Shown in pieces: positions 18,142-50,435 of a DNA stretch of 64,000 bases. This DNA is from Escherichia coli (GTDB lineage Bacteria; Pseudomonadota; Gammaproteobacteria; Enterobacterales; Enterobacteriaceae): NCBI RefSeq assembly GCF_013315695.1, contig NZ_CP054353.1. One strand, written 5' to 3'. The position numbers were made by a program, and so were the translations under genes. Under the pieces are notes generated by a model that did no database searches, was not told the DNA's origin, and saw only the letters and a program-made list of their open reading frames with translations. Position 1 is the first letter of the stretch; each line of letters opens with the position of its first letter.

Positions 18142-19554
18142 ATGGTAGATCAGGTAAAAGTCGTTGCCGATGATCAGGCTCCGGCTGAACAGTCGCTACG
18201 GCGCAATCTCACAAACCGACATATTCAGCTTATTGCCATTGGCGGTGCCATTGGTACAGGGCTGTTTATGGGGTCCGGCAAAACGATTAGCCTTGCCGGG
18301 CCGTCGATCATTTTTGTTTATATGATCATTGGTTTTATGCTCTTTTTCGTGATGCGGGCAATGGGGGAATTGCTGCTTTCGAATCTGGAATACAAATCTT
18401 TTAGTGACTTCGCTTCCGATTTACTCGGGCCGTGGGCGGGATATTTCACCGGCTGGACTTACTGGTTCTGCTGGGTTGTAACCGGTATGGCAGACGTGGT
18501 GGCGATCACGGCTTATGCTCAGTTCTGGTTCCCCGATCTCTCCGACTGGGTCGCCTCGCTGGCGGTGATAGTGCTGCTGCTGACGCTCAACCTCGCCACC
18601 GTGAAAATGTTCGGTGAGATGGAGTTCTGGTTTGCGATGATCAAAATCGTCGCCATTGTGTCGCTGATTGTCGTCGGCCTGGTCATGGTGGCGATGCACT
18701 TTCAGTCACCGACCGGTGTGGAAGCGTCATTCGCGCATTTGTGGAATGATGGCGGCTGGTTCCCGAAAGGTTTAAGTGGCTTCTTTGCCGGATTCCAGAT
18801 AGCGGTTTTCGCTTTCGTAGGGATTGAGCTGGTAGGTACCACCGCTGCGGAAACCAAAGATCCAGAGAAATCACTGCCACGCGCGATTAACTCCATTCCG
18901 ATCCGTATCATTATGTTCTACGTCTTCGCGCTGATTGTGATTATGTCCGTGACGCCGTGGAGTTCGGTAGTCCCGGAGAAAAGCCCGTTTGTTGAACTGT
19001 TCGTGTTGGTGGGGCTGCCTGCTGCCGCCAGCGTGATTAACTTTGTGGTGCTGACCTCTGCCGCTTCTTCCGCTAACAGCGGCGTCTTCTCTACCAGTCG
19101 TATGCTGTTTGGTCTGGCGCAGGAAGGTGTGGCACCGAAAGCGTTCGCTAAACTCTCTAAGCGCGCCGTACCCGCGAAAGGGCTGACCTTCTCCTGCATC
19201 TGCCTGCTCGGCGGCGTGGTGATGCTGTATGTGAATCCCAGCGTGATTGGTGCGTTCACGATGATCACGACCGTTTCCGCGATTCTGTTTATGTTCGTCT
19301 GGACGATTATCCTTTGCTCGTACCTGGTGTATCGCAAACAGCGTCCGCACTTGCATGAGAAATCAATCTACAAGATGCCGCTCGGCAAGCTGATGTGCTG
19401 GGTATGTATGGCATTCTTTGTGTTCGTGGTCGTGCTGCTGACACTGGAAGATGATACCCGCCAGGCGCTGCTGGTTACCCCGCTGTGGTTTATCGCTCTG
19501 GGGCTGGGCTGGTTGTTTATTGGTAAGAAGCGGGCTGCTGAACTGCGGAAATAA
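18142..19554 (+). CDS. cycA: CycA, D-serine/D-alanine/glycine transporter (APC family)
   Basis: 470 aa, 12-TM amino-acid permease, MVDQVKVVADDQAPAEQSLRRNLTNRHIQLIAIGGAIGTGLFMG. Confidence 0.9.
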   Translation: MVDQVKVVADDQAPAEQSLRRNLTNRHIQLIAIGGAIGTGLFMGSGKTISLAGPSIIFVYMIIGFMLFFVMRAMGELLLSNLEYKSFSDFASDLLGPWAGYFTGWTYWFCWVVTGMADVVAITAYAQFWFPDLSDWVASLAVIVLLLTLNLATVKMFGEMEFWFAMIKIVAIVSLIVVGLVMVAMHFQSPTGVEASFAHLWNDGGWFPKGLSGFFAGFQIAVFAFVGIELVGTTAAETKDPEKSLPRAINSIPIRIIMFYVFALIVIMSVTPWSSVVPEKSPFVELFVLVGLPAAASVINFVVLTSAASSANSGVFSTSRMLFGLAQEGVAPKAFAKLSKRAVPAKGLTFSCICLLGGVVMLYVNPSVIGAFTMITTVSAILFMFVWTIILCSYLVYRKQRPHLHEKSIYKMPLGKLMCWVCMAFFVFVVVLLTLEDDTRQALLVTPLWFIALGLGWLFIGKKRAAELRK

Positions 19555-20368: not shown

Positions 20369-21343
20369 TCAACTTTTTGAGACAGATTCAGTTAAAGGTT
20401 TTTCCGGTTTTGCTCTGACTGCAATGACCACGCCAACCACTAACAGCGCGATACCGCTCAGCGTCATCAGCGGCGGCATTTGCTGGCGGAGTAAAAAGGT
20501 GTACAGCAAACCTGCCAGCGTTTCGAAAACAATCAGCGGCCCGAGAATCACGGTCGGTAATCGCTGGCTGGCGACGTTCCAGCAGAGTGCACCGACCCAT
20601 GAGCAAAGCACGGCTATCGCAATCATCAGACTAATAAATACCAGCGGACGGGGGCCAAAGGGTAGGGAGAAGTCCGGCGTTTGCGTATTCAGCCAGTAAC
20701 AGGCGACGAGATAGCCAATGAGAGAAACCGGCAGCGTGACCAGCGCCTGCGCCGTTGCCCACATCATCGGATGTTTGTCGGGATTTTCCCGCAGCCAGCG
20801 GGCGTTGCGCAGGGCATACCACGCCCAGCAGACCACGGAAACTAACGCCAGCACGATGCCTGAGGTATAACGTGCCCAGTCAAAATCGGGGAGTCCGTGG
20901 TTTAACTCAGCAATATTCACGCACGCCAGGCCGATGCCAATACAAATCAGTGCCGGGGCGAGTTTTCCCCACGCGAGTTTACCGTCACGCTGGCTATAAA
21001 GCAGATTGGCGAGGACAGGAATCACCACCGGCAGGGTACCGATAATCATCGTGGAAACAGGCGCGCCAGTACGTTGAATGGCACTGGCAAGGCAGAAGTA
21101 ATAGATGAGGTTGCCCATCATAGTGAGCATCAAGGCGGTAAGCCAGTCGCGACGCGCCAACTGACGCAGACGCACGCGTCCCAGCCAGGCAATGGGCAGC
21201 GCAATTAACCCTAACGCCAGATAACGCCCCATCGACTGCAACATCGCCGGGTATTCCGGCACGATCAACGGCCCGACAAAAATAAGCCCCCACATCAACC
21301 CTGCTAACAGGGCGTACAGCACGCCGCTAATCATTACTGGCAT
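20369..21343 (-). CDS. ytfF: YtfF, EamA/DMT-family inner membrane transporter
   Basis: 10-TM DMT-type protein; true start probably the Met at 21334 (MISGVLYALLAGLMWG...), track starts three codons earlier. Confidence 0.8.
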   Translation of the reverse strand: MPVMISGVLYALLAGLMWGLIFVGPLIVPEYPAMLQSMGRYLALGLIALPIAWLGRVRLRQLARRDWLTALMLTMMGNLIYYFCLASAIQRTGAPVSTMIIGTLPVVIPVLANLLYSQRDGKLAWGKLAPALICIGIGLACVNIAELNHGLPDFDWARYTSGIVLALVSVVCWAWYALRNARWLRENPDKHPMMWATAQALVTLPVSLIGYLVACYWLNTQTPDFSLPFGPRPLVFISLMIAIAVLCSWVGALCWNVASQRLPTVILGPLIVFETLAGLLYTFLLRQQMPPLMTLSGIALLVVGVVIAVRAKPEKPLTESVSKS

Positions 21344-28133: not shown

Positions 28134-29477
28134 TTACGCGACGCTTTCTTCTTTATCTTTAGCGTCAGGCAGTTTTGGCGAAAGGGCTGTGGCCTTGCTG
28201 TCGATCCGGGTCACCAGCAGCTGGTCGATGCGGTAGTTATCGATATCCACCACTTCAAATTTGTAGCCGGCGAATTTCACCGAATCGGTGCGTTTCGGGA
28301 TCTTACGCAGCATAAACATCATAAAGCCGCCGATGGTTTCGTAGTTGCCCGACTGCGGGAACTCGTCAATATCCAGCACGCGCATGACGTCGTCAATCGG
28401 AGTGCCGCCGTCAATCAGCCATGAGTTCTCATCACGGGCGACAATCTGCTCTTCCAGCCCCTGGCCGACCAGATCGCCCATCAGCGTGGTCATCACGTCG
28501 TTGAGGGTGATGATCCCCACTACCAGCGCGTACTCGTTCATGATCACCGCGAAGTCTTCACCTGCGGTTTTAAAACTTTCCAACGCCTCTGAAAGGGTTA
28601 ACGTATCCGGCACAATCAGCGTGTTGCGAATTTGTACGCCGCTGTTCAGTGCCAGGCTTTGGTTAGCCAGCACGCGGTTCAGCAGGTCTTTAGAATCGAC
28701 ATAGCCGATGATGTGGTCAATATCTTCATTACAGACGAGGAACTTAGAGTGCGGATGTTCCGCCACCTTATTCTTCAGACTTTGCTCATCTTCGTGGAGA
28801 TCAAACCAAATCACGTTTTCACGCGGTGTCATTGAAGACGGAACGGTACGGGATTCTAGTTCAAAGACGTTTTCAATCAGCTCGTGTTCCTGTTTACGTA
28901 ACACGCCCGCCAGCGCACCGGCTTCCACTACCGCGTAGATGTCATCAGAAGTGATGTCATCTTTACGTACCATTGGCAGTTTGAAAATACGGAAGATCAT
29001 GTTCGCCAGGCCGTTGAAGAACCACACCAGCGGGGTGCAAACGTACAGGCAGAAGCGCATCGGGTTGATGATACGCAAAGCCACAGCTTCTGGCGCAATC
29101 ATACCGATGCGTTTCGGGGTTAAATCCGCAAACAGGATAAACATGCCAGTCACTAACGAGAAAGAGAGAATAAAGCTCAGTTGCTCAGAGAGTTCTGCCG
29201 ACATATAGCGGGAGAACAGGCTGTGAAAAGCTGGAGAAAATGCCGCATCACCGACGATACCGCCGAGAATCGCCACTGCGTTCAGACCGATTTGGACCAC
29301 GGTAAAGAACATGCCGGGATTTTCCTGCATATTCAGAACGCGTTGGGCATTTATATTGCCTTCATCAGCCAGCAGTTTAAGTTTGATTTTGCGTGAGGCG
29401 GCAAGCGAGATCTCGGACATCGAGAAGAACGCACTTACAGCGATCAAACAGAGTATGACTAAAATACTGTTTAACAT
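28134..29477 (-). CDS. ytfL: YtfL (PaeA), UPF0053/CorC-HlyC-family membrane protein with CBS domains
   Basis: 447 aa, MLNSILVILCLIAVSAFFSMSEISLAASRKIKLKLLADEG..., DUF21 + CBS pair + CorC-HlyC C-terminal architecture. Confidence 0.85.
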   Translation of the reverse strand: MLNSILVILCLIAVSAFFSMSEISLAASRKIKLKLLADEGNINAQRVLNMQENPGMFFTVVQIGLNAVAILGGIVGDAAFSPAFHSLFSRYMSAELSEQLSFILSFSLVTGMFILFADLTPKRIGMIAPEAVALRIINPMRFCLYVCTPLVWFFNGLANMIFRIFKLPMVRKDDITSDDIYAVVEAGALAGVLRKQEHELIENVFELESRTVPSSMTPRENVIWFDLHEDEQSLKNKVAEHPHSKFLVCNEDIDHIIGYVDSKDLLNRVLANQSLALNSGVQIRNTLIVPDTLTLSEALESFKTAGEDFAVIMNEYALVVGIITLNDVMTTLMGDLVGQGLEEQIVARDENSWLIDGGTPIDDVMRVLDIDEFPQSGNYETIGGFMMFMLRKIPKRTDSVKFAGYKFEVVDIDNYRIDQLLVTRIDSKATALSPKLPDAKDKEESVA

Positions 29478-45708: not shown

Positions 45709-47061
45709 ATGGCACTTGCAATGAAAGTAATCTCTCAAGTTGAAGCGCAGCGCAAGATTCTGGAAGAAGCAGTTTCCACTGCGCTGGAGTTGGCCTCAGG
45801 CAAATCGGACGGTGCGGAAGTTGCCGTCAGCAAGACCACCGGCATTAGCGTAAGCACGCGTTATGGTGAAGTGGAGAATGTTGAATTCAATAGCGATGGC
45901 GCGCTGGGGATCACTGTTTATCACCAGAACCGCAAAGGTAGCGCATCATCCACCGATTTAAGCCCGCAGGCCATTGCCCGTACTGTACAGGCGGCGCTGG
46001 ATATTGCCCGTTATACCTCGCCAGATCCCTGTGCCGGCGTGGCAGACAAAGAGCTGCTGGCCTTTGACGCACCAGATCTCGACTTGTTCCACCCTGCGGA
46101 AGTTTCCCCGGATGAAGCCATTGAACTGGCGGCCCGCGCAGAACAGGCGGCATTGCAGGCGGACAAACGCATCACCAATACCGAAGGTGGCAGCTTTAAC
46201 AGCCACTACGGTGTCAAAGTTTTTGGCAACAGCCACGGCATGTTGCAGGGTTACTGCTCAACGCGTCATTCGCTCTCCAGCTGTGTAATTGCCGAAGAAA
46301 ATGGCGATATGGAGCGTGATTACGCCTACACCATTGGCCGCGCGATGAGCGATCTGCAAACGCCAGAGTGGGTCGGGGCCGACTGTGCTCGCCGTACTTT
46401 ATCGCGCCTGTCACCGCGTAAACTCTCCACCATGAAAGCGCCGGTCATTTTTGCCAATGAAGTGGCAACCGGGCTTTTTGGCCATCTGGTGGGGGCGATA
46501 GCGGGTGGCTCGGTTTACCGTAAATCTACCTTTCTGCTGGATTCGCTGGGTAAACAAATTCTGCCGGACTGGCTGACCATTGAAGAGCATCCGCATCTGC
46601 TGAAAGGGCTGGCGTCGACGCCATTCGACAGCGAAGGTGTGCGCACCGAGCGTCGCGATATTATTAAAGATGGCATCCTGACTCAGTGGCTGCTGACCAG
46701 CTACTCGGCGCGGAAACTGGGGCTGAAAAGCACCGGACATGCGGGCGGTATTCACAACTGGCGGATTGCCGGACAAGGGCTAAGCTTCGAACAAATGCTC
46801 AAAGAGATGGGCACCGGGCTGGTGGTGACGGAGCTGATGGGCCAGGGCGTGAGTGCCATTACCGGTGATTATTCCCGTGGTGCAGCGGGCTTCTGGGTAG
46901 AGAATGGCGAAATTCAGTATCCCGTTAGTGAAATCACCATCGCAGGTAATTTAAAAGATATGTGGCGCAATATTGTCACCGTCGGTAACGATATTGAAAC
47001 ACGCAGTAATATACAGTGTGGTTCTGTGCTGTTGCCGGAGATGAAAATCGCCGGGCAGTAA
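45709..47061 (+). CDS. pmbA: PmbA (TldE), metalloprotease subunit
   Basis: 450 aa, PmbA/TldD family. Confidence 0.9.
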
Positions 47062-47240
47062 AAAACTGGCGCGACCTGCCGCGCTATAAACTAAAAAATT
47101 ACACAAAATCATTCGCACTGCATCGAGACGGAAAGTGAATGAGGGCCGGGGAGCGTACTCGCAGTACGTGACCCGGGCGAATGAGCGTAGCCGTCGATGA
47201 GGCAGTGTGAAGGATGAAGTGTAAATAAAAAAGGAAGTGA

Positions 47241-47630
<390 letters not shown>

Positions 47631-47640
47631 TTCCTCATTT

Positions 47641-47668
47641 CCCTGTTGCCTGCACTCAGGTAACAGGG
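47641..47668. terminator. Hairpin terminator between convergent cybC and nrdG
   Basis: ccctgttgcctgcactcaggtaacaggg inverted repeat. Confidence 0.55.
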
Positions 47669-47674
47669 AACTTA

Positions 47675-48139
47675 TCATCGCAAATGATGCACCACCTGAT
47701 TGCTGCTGCCGCGCCAGATCAGGGAAGGGTCTTTTAAATCCTGCACAAATTTGCCGTCGACCAGCACGTTAATCAAATCAACAACCTGCATTTGCGCAGC
47801 GTTGAGTTCGTCGAGTTTATAGCCTGTCCACACCCAGATGTCTTTACCCGGACACTCGGCGCGGATGCGTTTTACCAGTTTCAGAATATCCGGCACGTTT
47901 TGCGGATGCAGCGGATCGCCGCCGGAGAGGGAAATCCCCTGGCGTTTGATACGAGTGTCATTCAGATCTTTAATGATCTTGTCTTCCATTGCTTTGGTAA
48001 ATGGCTGACCAGAATTTACCCGCCATGTGCTTTTGTTATAGCAACCGGGGCATTCATGAACACACCCGGAGACAAACAGGGTGCAGCGAGTGCCGGGGCC
48101 GTTGACGATGTCGACAGGATAGTACTGATGATAATTCAT
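47675..48139 (-). CDS. nrdG: NrdG, anaerobic ribonucleotide reductase activating protein (radical SAM)
   Basis: 154 aa, MNYHQYYPVDIVNGPGTRCTLFVSGCVHECPGCYNKSTW... Confidence 0.9.
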   Translation of the reverse strand: MNYHQYYPVDIVNGPGTRCTLFVSGCVHECPGCYNKSTWRVNSGQPFTKAMEDKIIKDLNDTRIKRQGISLSGGDPLHPQNVPDILKLVKRIRAECPGKDIWVWTGYKLDELNAAQMQVVDLINVLVDGKFVQDLKDPSLIWRGSSNQVVHHLR

Positions 48140-48164
48140 TATTTCGCCTGGCTTATCAGTCCGC

Positions 48165-48290
<126 letters not shown>

Positions 48291-48296
48291 TGAAGA

Positions 48297-50435
48297 TTAA
48301 CCTATCTGCCCATTCCCCAAATGTTTAACGCGGCGCTTAACTTCTTCCTGCTTACCAGCGTTAAACGGACGTGCATCCGGGCTACCTAAATATCCGCACA
48401 CGCGGCGAGTTACCGACACACGGGAGGCGTCATGGTTACCACATTTCGGGCAAGTGAAGCCTTTGCTGGTGCACTCGAACTCACCGGTAAAGCCACACTC
48501 GTAGCACTCATCAATCGGTGTATTGGTGCCGTAATACGGTACATGCTGATAGCTGTAATCCCAGACATCTTCCAGCGCTTTCAGGTTGTGCTGAATGTTT
48601 GGATACTCGCCGTAGCAAATGAAACCACCGTTCGCCAGCGGCGGGTAAGGCGCTTCAAAGTCGATCTTGTCGTACGGGTTCACCTTCTTCTCCACATCAA
48701 GGTGGAAACTGTTGGTGTAGTAACCTTTATCGGTCACGCCCGGCACCACGCCAAACTCAGCAGTATCGAGACGGCAGAAGCGGTCGCACAGGTTTTCACT
48801 CGGCGTGCTGTAGAGACTGAAACCATAACCCGTTTCTTCTTTCCACTGATCCACTGCCTGACGCAGACGTTCAACAATGGCGATACCTTTCGCGCGAAGC
48901 TGCTCGTTGTCGTAAACATGCTCGCCGCCGAACAGCGCGTTAATGGTTTCGTGGATGCCGATGTAACCCAGCGAAATAGACGCACGACCGTTTTTGAAGA
49001 TTTCAGAAACATCATCGTCAGCATTCAGACGTACGCCACAAGCACCTTCCATATAGAGGATCGGGGCGACGCGCGCTTTCACGCCTTCGAGACGAGCGAT
49101 ACGGGTCATCAGTGCCTTACGTGCCAGCACCAGACGTTCATCCAGCAGCTTCCAGAAGGTGGCTTCATCGCCTTTTGCTTCCAGAGCAATACGCGGCAGG
49201 TTCAGGCTGATCACGCCGAGGTTGTTACGACCATCGTGGATCTGCTCGCCGTTTTCATTTTCCCACACGCCGAGGAAGCTGCGGCAGCCCATCGGGGTTT
49301 TAAACGAACCGGTGACTTTCACTACCTGATCGTAGTTCAGGATATCCGGATACATGCGCTTGCTTGCGCACTCCAGCGCCAGCTGTTTGATGTCGTAGTT
49401 CGGATCGCCTTTTTTATGGTTCAGGCCATCGCGAATCGCAAACACCAGTTTCGGGAACACCGCAGTTTTACGGTTTTTACCGAGGCCTGCGATACGGTTA
49501 CGCAGGATCGATTCCTGAATCAGGCGCGATTCCCAGCTGGTGCCCAGACCAAAACCAAAGGTTACAAACGGCGTCTGACCGTTGGCGGTGTGCAGGGTGT
49601 TTACTTCGTACTCCAGCGACTGGAAGGCATCGTAGCACTCTTTGATGGTACGAGAGTTAGCGTAGCCTTCGGCGTCCGGGATGTTCCACTCTTCTGCGGT
49701 CTTGCGATGTTTGTTGTAGCTGGCGGTAACAAACGGCGCCAGCACTTCATCGATACGGTTAATGGTGGTGCCGCCATAAATATGGCTGGCGACCTGAGCA
49801 ATAATCTGCGCAGTTACCGCGGTTGCCGTAGAGATCGACTTCGGCGGTTCAATCTCGGCGTTCCCCATTTTAAAGCCCTGGGTCAGCATGCCTTTCAGGT
49901 CGATCAACATGCAGTTGAACATCGGGAAGAACGGCGAGTAATCGAGATCGTGATAGTGAATATCGCCACGCTCATGTGCCTGCACCACGTCACGCGGCAG
50001 CAGGTGCTGGCGTGCATAGTGTTTAGCCACGATCCCGGCCAGCAGGTCGCGCTGGGTTGGAATCACCTTGCTGTCTTTGTTGGCGTTTTCGTTGAGTAAC
50101 GAGGCGTTGGTCTGCTCGACCAGACCACGGATCTCCTGGTTCAGGCGACCGCGTTTTTCACGTTCAATGTCGCGATCGTGACGGTACTCGATGTAAGCAC
50201 GAGCCAGTTGTTTGTATGGACCCGACATCAGCTGGTTTTCAACTGCGGTCTGGATCTCGTTGATATCCACCTGGTTGCGGCCCTGCATCTGCTCGCTGAC
50301 AACCGCGGCAACAGTGGCGCAATAATCGGCATCATCGACTTCCGCTGCTTTAGCTGCACGCAGAATCGCTTCTTTGATGCGCTCTGATTTAAACGGCACT
50401 TTGCAGCCGTCTCGTTTCATCACATGCGGTGTCAT
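48297..50435 (-). CDS. nrdD: NrdD, anaerobic ribonucleoside-triphosphate reductase (class III)
   Basis: 712 aa, N-terminal ATP-cone, C-terminal glycyl-radical region and zinc-ribbon cysteines. Confidence 0.95.
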   Translation of the reverse strand: MTPHVMKRDGCKVPFKSERIKEAILRAAKAAEVDDADYCATVAAVVSEQMQGRNQVDINEIQTAVENQLMSGPYKQLARAYIEYRHDRDIEREKRGRLNQEIRGLVEQTNASLLNENANKDSKVIPTQRDLLAGIVAKHYARQHLLPRDVVQAHERGDIHYHDLDYSPFFPMFNCMLIDLKGMLTQGFKMGNAEIEPPKSISTATAVTAQIIAQVASHIYGGTTINRIDEVLAPFVTASYNKHRKTAEEWNIPDAEGYANSRTIKECYDAFQSLEYEVNTLHTANGQTPFVTFGFGLGTSWESRLIQESILRNRIAGLGKNRKTAVFPKLVFAIRDGLNHKKGDPNYDIKQLALECASKRMYPDILNYDQVVKVTGSFKTPMGCRSFLGVWENENGEQIHDGRNNLGVISLNLPRIALEAKGDEATFWKLLDERLVLARKALMTRIARLEGVKARVAPILYMEGACGVRLNADDDVSEIFKNGRASISLGYIGIHETINALFGGEHVYDNEQLRAKGIAIVERLRQAVDQWKEETGYGFSLYSTPSENLCDRFCRLDTAEFGVVPGVTDKGYYTNSFHLDVEKKVNPYDKIDFEAPYPPLANGGFICYGEYPNIQHNLKALEDVWDYSYQHVPYYGTNTPIDECYECGFTGEFECTSKGFTCPKCGNHDASRVSVTRRVCGYLGSPDARPFNAGKQEEVKRRVKHLGNGQIG

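Follow-up and report, generated by a model that had tools for sequence, protein, structure and literature searches.

The pmbA-cybC spacer of the 64,000-nt stretch of Escherichia coli DNA analysed here (contig NZ_CP054353.1; hereafter, the window) contains a strongly palindromic sequence, which raises the question of whether it is a regulatory element of one of the two flanking genes. The first-pass annotation, made from the sequence alone, had described it as a two-tier hairpin about 65-100 nt upstream of the cybC start and had offered two readings: a 5′ UTR structure or a protein-binding palindrome. Our analysis makes it very likely that an ERIC copy inserted between pmbA and cybC in an ancestor of the genus Escherichia and that the flagged palindrome forms its apical stem-loop. 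ERIC, the enterobacterial repetitive intergenic consensus, is a 127-bp MITE-like imperfect palindrome. The family, also referred to as IRU or RU-1 of Enterobacteriaceae, was reportedly described by Sharples and Lloyd in 1990 and by Hulton, Higgins and Sharp in 1991, and revisited by Wilson and Sharp in 2006. It has therefore been known since 1990-91, and the window copy is a commonplace feature, not a regulator dedicated to cybC.

The hairpin itself is present as described. It reads CCGGG (47146-47150), GAG, CGTACT (47154-47159), a CGC loop, AGTACG (47163-47168), TGA and CCCGG (47172-47176), i.e. an outer CCGGG/CCCGG tier and an inner CGTACT/AGTACG tier separated by a GAG/TGA internal loop. 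Measured from the cybC ATG it lies 68-98 nt upstream, and the 40-nt stretch that had been marked folds at -24.2 kcal/mol, compared with -13.4 ± 2.5 kcal/mol for dinucleotide shuffles (z = -4.3; 0 of 200 shuffles were as stable). Its extent, in contrast, had been drawn too narrowly, since the hairpin is merely the tip of a palindrome that spans 47099-47225. Folding of a 199-nt context (-78.3 kcal/mol, z = -6.95) yields a continuous imperfect palindrome from ~47099 to 47225, and a repeat finder, independently of the fold, places the outer arms at these same ends (Table 1). The start of the element lies 37 nt beyond the pmbA stop codon; its end is 6 nt short of the cybC Shine-Dalgarno sequence and 18 nt short of the ATG, Shine-Dalgarno included. 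The block directly upstream of cybC, AATAA(T)AAAAAGGAAGTGAGCAatg (47226-47246), is near-invariant from Escherichia to Kluyvera and Kosakonia (loci L007-L062); it is kept across genera with or without ERIC and is intact in both ERIC insertions described below. RefSeq records carry no annotation at the ERIC site.

Table 1. Features of the pmbA-cybC locus in the window and ERIC copies or remnants in the same spacer of related genera (locus handle:position)
Feature	Position	Strand	Basis or remark
pmbA/tldE	45709-47061	+	stop codon 47059-47061
cybC	47244-47630	+	full-length 128-aa precursor; ATG 47244-47246
nrdG	47675-48139	-	
nrdD	48297-50435	-	
Complete ERIC/IRU element, 127 nt	47099-47225	+	consensus alignment, nhmmer, 128-bp block missing in many E. 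coli
Apical two-tier stem-loop (conserved central core of ERIC)	47146-47176	+	fold, inverted-repeat finder, covariation
Left terminal arm of the ERIC palindrome	47099-47124	+	26-nt inverted repeat, 77% complementary to 47199-47224
Right terminal arm of the ERIC palindrome	47199-47224	+	inverted repeat, covariation
cybC Shine-Dalgarno AAGGAAG	47231-47237	+	context, outside the ERIC repeat
Opposite-orientation ERIC copies	L019:1334-1457, L022:1339-1463, L024:1342-1466		
~10-nt remnants of the opposite-orientation ERIC	L020, L030, L055		

As the ERIC reference we used the 127-nt E. coli consensus of Wilson and Sharp (2006), which is printed reverse-complemented in Table 1a of Delihas (2007; PMC2759123). 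A global, end-to-end alignment of 47099-47225 to this consensus has 85 of 126 positions identical and one 1-nt gap; its score of 125 is ~15 SD above that of shuffled sequences (44.8 ± 5.3). The gap corresponds to an extra base in the apical loop, and the + strand corresponds to the 'forward' orientation of the consensus. An nhmmer model built from 11 other ERIC copies, with the window copy and its orthologues left out, recovers the window copy over model positions 2-125 (E = 3.3e-23), and this non-circular HMM makes it very unlikely that the consensus match is an alignment artefact. Across the 64-kb window the same model returned no other credible ERIC match: we attribute the weak matches at 21127-21144, 29394-29413 and 19016-19046 (E = 1-10), the first two of which fall within long ORFs, to chance. 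The unit length agrees as well, the element being 127 nt long and collinear with the 127-nt consensus save for the 1-nt gap, while ERIC-free E. coli alleles are short by 128 bp net.

Searching complete E. coli genomes by blastn with a 136-nt query yielded 13,359 places in 5,108 of 5,426 genomes, with a median of 3 places per genome detectable from the divergent window copy. The orthologous pmbA-cybC place is at least 95% identical in ~3,880 E. coli records. The E. coli paralogues are ~70-73% identical and collinear and lie between genes elsewhere, for instance in the puuR-puuC and rhlB-gppA spacers, which establishes 47099-47225 as a dispersed repeat; further ERIC copies are found at Citrobacter, Salmonella, Morganella and Yersinia loci. 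Like other members of the family, the window copy is a single long imperfect palindrome that is intergenic, multi-copy and polymorphic for presence or absence, and it has the conserved core ...GGAGC-TAC...GTA-GTGAC.... It differs from them in its divergence (67% identity to the E. coli consensus, compared with 71-86% for the 11 other independent sampled copies; two Escherichia orthologues of the window copy are at 65-66%), in its longer apical loop and in its degenerate terminal TA. ERICs typically have a TA duplication at their ends, and it is not intact in the window copy: the termini read AAT|TACAC...GTGTA|AAT, so that the inner TA is present at each end and the outer consensus TA is replaced by AT at the left end and by AA at the right. 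At the insertion site ERIC-free relatives carry ...CAATAATAAAAA..., a sequence that would suit a TA target but is no proof of one.

The palindrome is maintained as a pairing structure throughout the family. We aligned 14 copies: that of the window, two Escherichia orthologues, two E. coli paralogues, copies from Citrobacter, Salmonella, Morganella, Yersinia and E. whittamii, and the published Salmonella SeRU-1. The RNAalifold consensus is one long stem-loop of 31 pairs, 16 of which have changed on both sides. Standard pairing is found in 97.0% of cells, a share that falls to 35-41% if the 3′ partners are displaced by 1-3 columns; such slid controls have only 2-5 double-change pairs, and 0 of 500 shuffles score as high in covariation as the real alignment. 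Helices 4 and 5 (columns 50-52/76-78 and 56-61/67-72) make up the flagged hairpin; in them 97-98% of cells are paired and 3 pairs show double changes. Compensatory changes affect 13 of the 20 pairs of terminal-arm helices 1-2. In the window copy the outer tier has been re-paired from consensus CCCAG/CTGGG to CCGGG/CCCGG, and one inner pair from T-A to G-C. The ERIC hairpin is thus kept family-wide through compensatory changes. A shared stem-loop has also been predicted for E. coli ERICs by RNAz (PMC2267715).

Pairs of the G.U type are conserved as well, e.g. at alignment columns 56-72 and 18-111, and the forward strand folds better in 12 of 13 ERIC copies. In the window the + strand folds at -78 kcal/mol and the - strand at -55 kcal/mol. 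We considered whether this asymmetry reflects local selection for the transcribed sense and rejected the idea: since the forward strand folds better in 12 of 13 copies whatever their context, the asymmetry is a property of the family. A separate observation concerns Escherichia sp. MOD1-EC7003 (L010:1355-1483), which has GTGCAT...ATGCAC where E. coli has GTGAAT...ATGAGC (47136-47141 and 47181-47186): a single substitution in one arm together with three neighbouring ones in the other yields a perfect 6-bp stem, which suggests arm-templated conversion or selection for pairing.

How old is the insertion, and how widely is it shared? Scanning species-representative genomes for cybC gave 57 loci. 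All six Escherichia representatives (two records labelled E. coli that are ~27% diverged at four-fold sites, two Escherichia sp., E. whittamii and E. albertii) carry ERIC at the same site and in the same orientation, with spacers of 181-183 nt. Most Citrobacter, Enterobacter, Atlantibacter, Kosakonia and Kluyvera, as well as S. enterica arizonae, have spacers of 30-86 nt without a full ERIC. Conservation across Enterobacteriaceae, which had been named as a check on the hairpin, therefore holds throughout the genus Escherichia but fails upstream of cybC in most other genera and in the ~28% of E. coli that lack the element with cybC intact.

The same spacer has received ERIC a second time. A full copy in the opposite orientation is present in Citrobacter sp. 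Res13, Citrobacter sp. MGH106 and S. enterica diarizonae. It directly adjoins the stop codon of pmbA, has 80-85% identity to the consensus but only 58-61% to the window copy, and is an independent insertion. Related Citrobacter retain remnants of it, either ~43 nt with an internal deletion (L015, L016, L021) or ~10 nt long (Table 1). This second insertion and its progressively deleted remnants mark the pmbA-cybC spacer as a recurrent target. Citrobacter amalonaticus S646 (L013:1316-1500) has a 185-nt spacer without a full ERIC, in which a short ERIC-like remnant precedes a long palindrome of another kind, AGAGCCCGGCCATCAGGC...GCCTGATGGCCTGGCTCT, which may be a further small mobile element.

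Within E. coli, the 721-nt query that covers the locus matches over only 593 nt in the ERIC-free genomes. The ERIC-free allele reads GCCGCGC-CAAATCTTCAT-AATAAAAAAGG and resembles that of the ERIC-free Citrobacter sp. Awk 4 (CATAAACTTCAATAATAAAAAGG). It contains CTTCAT, a motif that an ERIC-free Citrobacter also has and that is found in no filled allele, and because this motif is retained we rejected a simple deletion as its origin; the allele looks ancestral and not like a deletion product. Its flanks are recombinant. In strain TOE3 (ERIC-free, L004) the pmbA side has 0 differences from the window in 502 positions and the distal cybC is UTI89-like, and the ERIC-free strain 980-2 (L005) has a 200-nt pmbA 3′ segment that is 5-6% divergent.

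E. coli K-12 MG1655 presents a different situation, in that ERIC is kept and a separate 26-bp deletion (GTGAGCAATGCGTAAAAGCCTGTTAG; L003:7480-7500, equivalent to window positions 47237-47263) takes the end of the RBS together with the cybC ATG, the gene being annotated as a pseudogene. The deletion junction, AAGGAACTATTCTTGCA, is exactly 'IS52', reported as an intragenic sigma-54 binding site in cybC by Bonocora et al. 2015 (PMC4591121). To judge by the alignment, this sigma-54 site appears to be K-12-specific and to have been made by the 26-bp deletion.

We then compared the divergence of the element with that of its surroundings. Between the window and other Escherichia species, ERIC differs at 3-9% of sites (pooled, 4.5%), compared with 14-33% of the four-fold degenerate sites of pmbA and cybC in the same species and 20-28% of third-codon positions over most of the two genes. 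Close to ERIC, third positions differ less, at 12.7% in the last 150 nt of pmbA and 10% in the first 150 nt of cybC, and the divergence dip thus extends past ERIC into the flanking codons. Per species, the difference between ERIC and adjacent third positions gives Fisher p values of 4e-5 to 1e-2, in comparisons that are not independent of each other. The low divergence of ERIC reflects either purifying selection on the element and neighbouring expression signals or recent recombinational spread, and the two are not mutually exclusive. Recent spread by recombination would also explain why an ancestral-type ERIC-free allele segregates in E. coli.

The strongest competing account of the locus is that ERIC is a neutral relic without effect on the expression of pmbA or cybC, its low divergence being due to recent spread of the ERIC allele by homologous recombination; we consider this a serious possibility, to which we would give somewhat less than an even chance. 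It accommodates the fact that ~28% of E. coli genomes dispense with the element, the inclusion of third positions at the pmbA 3′ and cybC 5′ ends in the divergence dip, the recombination breakpoints at the locus, as in TOE3 with its window-identical left flank and UTI89-like right flank, and the decay of the independent Citrobacter/Salmonella-lineage ERIC to ~43-nt and ~10-nt remnants. It fits less well with the pooled ERIC divergence, which is still 2-3 times below that of the immediately adjacent third positions, and with the pairing kept in the Escherichia copies, including the multi-base change in MOD1-EC7003 that creates the perfect GTGCAT/ATGCAC stem. A further reading is exaptation, i.e. 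purifying selection across Escherichia on an RNA element that tunes the fate of the pmbA/cybC mRNA, combined with an old, recombination-shuffled ERIC+/ERIC- polymorphism. We regard exaptation as unlikely; if true, it would turn the pmbA-cybC spacer, with its opposite-orientation insertion, into a natural experiment on ERIC function and orientation.

Any such effect presupposes that the element is transcribed. A sigma-70 promoter scan of 46900-47800 returned no site, and literature searches yielded nothing usable on the cybC transcription start or on a pmbA-cybC operon. The geometry of the locus nevertheless indicates that ERIC is very probably transcribed, given that it ends 18 nt from the cybC ATG and that ERIC-free relatives have spacers of 30-86 nt. 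With no promoter predicted in or after ERIC and spacers as short as 30 nt in relatives, the cybC transcript would start upstream of the insertion site or be pmbA read-through, and ERIC would accordingly form part of a pmbA-cybC read-through RNA or of a cybC transcript begun upstream of it. To this extent the earlier suggestion of a 5′ UTR structure stands: the hairpin very probably lies in a transcribed region upstream of cybC. It does not stand as a structure specific to cybC, as the hairpin is the central core of a 127-nt ERIC/IRU repeat.

In RNA the element is predicted to fold on itself into one long hairpin (~-64 kcal/mol) and to leave the cybC RBS unpaired. Because of this self-folding and the free RBS, any effect of ERIC would probably be exerted on mRNA stability or processing, i.e. 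through mRNA decay or maturation. It could act passively, as a barrier to 3′ exonucleases for the upstream pmbA segment or as a 5′-proximal stem of a processed cybC mRNA. Since many E. coli do without ERIC, the effect is probably modest, and it may be null. An important local function is further argued against by the intact cybC of the ERIC-free genomes and by K-12, which keeps ERIC though the start of cybC has been lost.

A role has been reported for ERICs in Yersinia, which, in the account of De Gregorio et al. 2005 (J Bacteriol 187:7945) relayed by PMC2229807 and PMC10969869, are co-transcribed with their neighbours and alter the stability of the flanking mRNA according to their orientation; in the model given there, a ribosome terminating next to ERIC exposes an RNase E site. 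The Yersinia elements belong to the same family as the window copy and form an RNA hairpin that changes the stability of mRNA segments. They differ in lying next to the terminating ribosome. The window copy is set back by 37 nt from the pmbA stop codon, behind the hairpin at 47069-47084, which makes the Yersinia trigger unlikely here, and we find a passive role more plausible than a ribosome-exposed RNase E trigger. The Yersinia geometry is a better fit to the opposite-orientation ERIC of Citrobacter and S. enterica diarizonae, which abuts the stop codon.

The hairpin at 47069-47084, GCGCGACCTGCCGCGC, follows directly after the pmbA stop codon and has its T-run on the minus strand (CAGTTTTTTA). 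It is the only terminator-like site that a terminator scan reports nearby and, from its sequence, would seem to end antisense transcription and not that of pmbA. Without any change it recurs in 7 aligned Escherichia sequences and in some Citrobacter, and it has one loop substitution in UTI89; Atlantibacter and Kluyvera have analogous post-pmbA hairpins that are followed by a T-run on the + strand.

Could the flagged hairpin instead be a transcription terminator or a REP-like 3′ stabiliser of pmbA? Being a stable, GC-rich hairpin downstream of pmbA, it has the right general character, but we judge this very unlikely. As had been stated from the outset, it lacks a T-run: it is followed by GCGAATGAGCG, the terminator scan reports nothing at this position, and the transcript would have no U-run after the hairpin, while a separate hairpin lies right after the pmbA stop codon. 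The earlier statement that it is not a REP sequence is borne out too, since the REP-derived Rfam model naRNA4 matches only at 48159-48310. REP/BIME elements of E. coli resemble ERIC in being extragenic, transcribed palindromic repeats, and REPs can protect upstream mRNA from 3′ exonucleases, but they are ~35-40 nt long, clustered and of another consensus. The naRNA4 matches are themselves a side observation: three of them, overlapping and below threshold (37-42 bits, compared with a gathering score of 59.5), fall in the nrdG-nrdD spacer and suggest, at the sequence level, a REP/BIME cluster.

Still less probable is a structured 5′ UTR proper to cybC, such as a riboswitch, an RNA thermometer or an attenuator, that controls its translation or transcription. 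The position just upstream of the RBS, the great stability of the fold and its conservation within Escherichia would suit such an element. Membership in the ERIC family, however, largely refutes it: the sequence belongs to a repeat dispersed beside unrelated genes, it is missing from most cybC-bearing genera and from many E. coli, and its fold leaves the Shine-Dalgarno sequence free. Nor does it belong to a catalogued RNA family, as a search of 46000-48500 with the 4,227 models of Rfam 15 at E ≤ 10 gave nothing in 47099-47225 and only the REP-like naRNA4 matches elsewhere. The least probable reading is the protein-binding one, a duplex-DNA operator regulating cybC or pmbA: apart from the dyad symmetry and the position between two genes we found nothing in its support, and the element is an ERIC/IRU repeat whose conserved G.U pairs and better forward fold in 12 of 13 copies speak for a single-stranded hairpin, whose arms vary by compensatory changes with no fixed recognition sequence, and for which no DNA motif besides the terminal repeats is given in a review of ERICs (PMC2229807).

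Having identified the element as ERIC, we note its likeness to the Correia/NEMIS MITEs of Neisseria, which are also MITE-like palindromes of ~100-150 bp with TA ends and which are co-transcribed and undergo processing by RNase III at the RNA level (PMC10969869). The Neisseria elements are unrelated in sequence, reside in another host and can carry promoters and IHF sites, none of which is evident in the window copy.

The value of recognising ERIC at this locus lies chiefly in annotation, as it guards against mistaking the element for a riboswitch or an operator of cybC. Rfam has no ERIC model, and it is this, together with the missing RefSeq annotation, that lets ERIC cores be rediscovered again and again as 'novel regulatory hairpins'. 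The genus-wide conservation, the ancestral-looking ERIC-free allele and the second insertion in sister genera are details of modest follow-up value. By offering natural ERIC+ and ERIC- alleles on near-identical backgrounds, along with an opposite-orientation insertion in related genera, the locus could also serve as a modest test bed for ERIC function.

On the other side of cybC, other Escherichia (L007, L008, L009, L011 and L012:1890-2340) carry an extra ~450-600 nt between cybC and nrdG, at a position equivalent to ~47640-47671 of the window. In E. albertii this extra sequence includes a 64-aa ORF ending in YRLVYQVNDKELLVLVIAIGKREYSAVYEDATKRLDE, which we take to resemble a RelE/ParE-type toxin.
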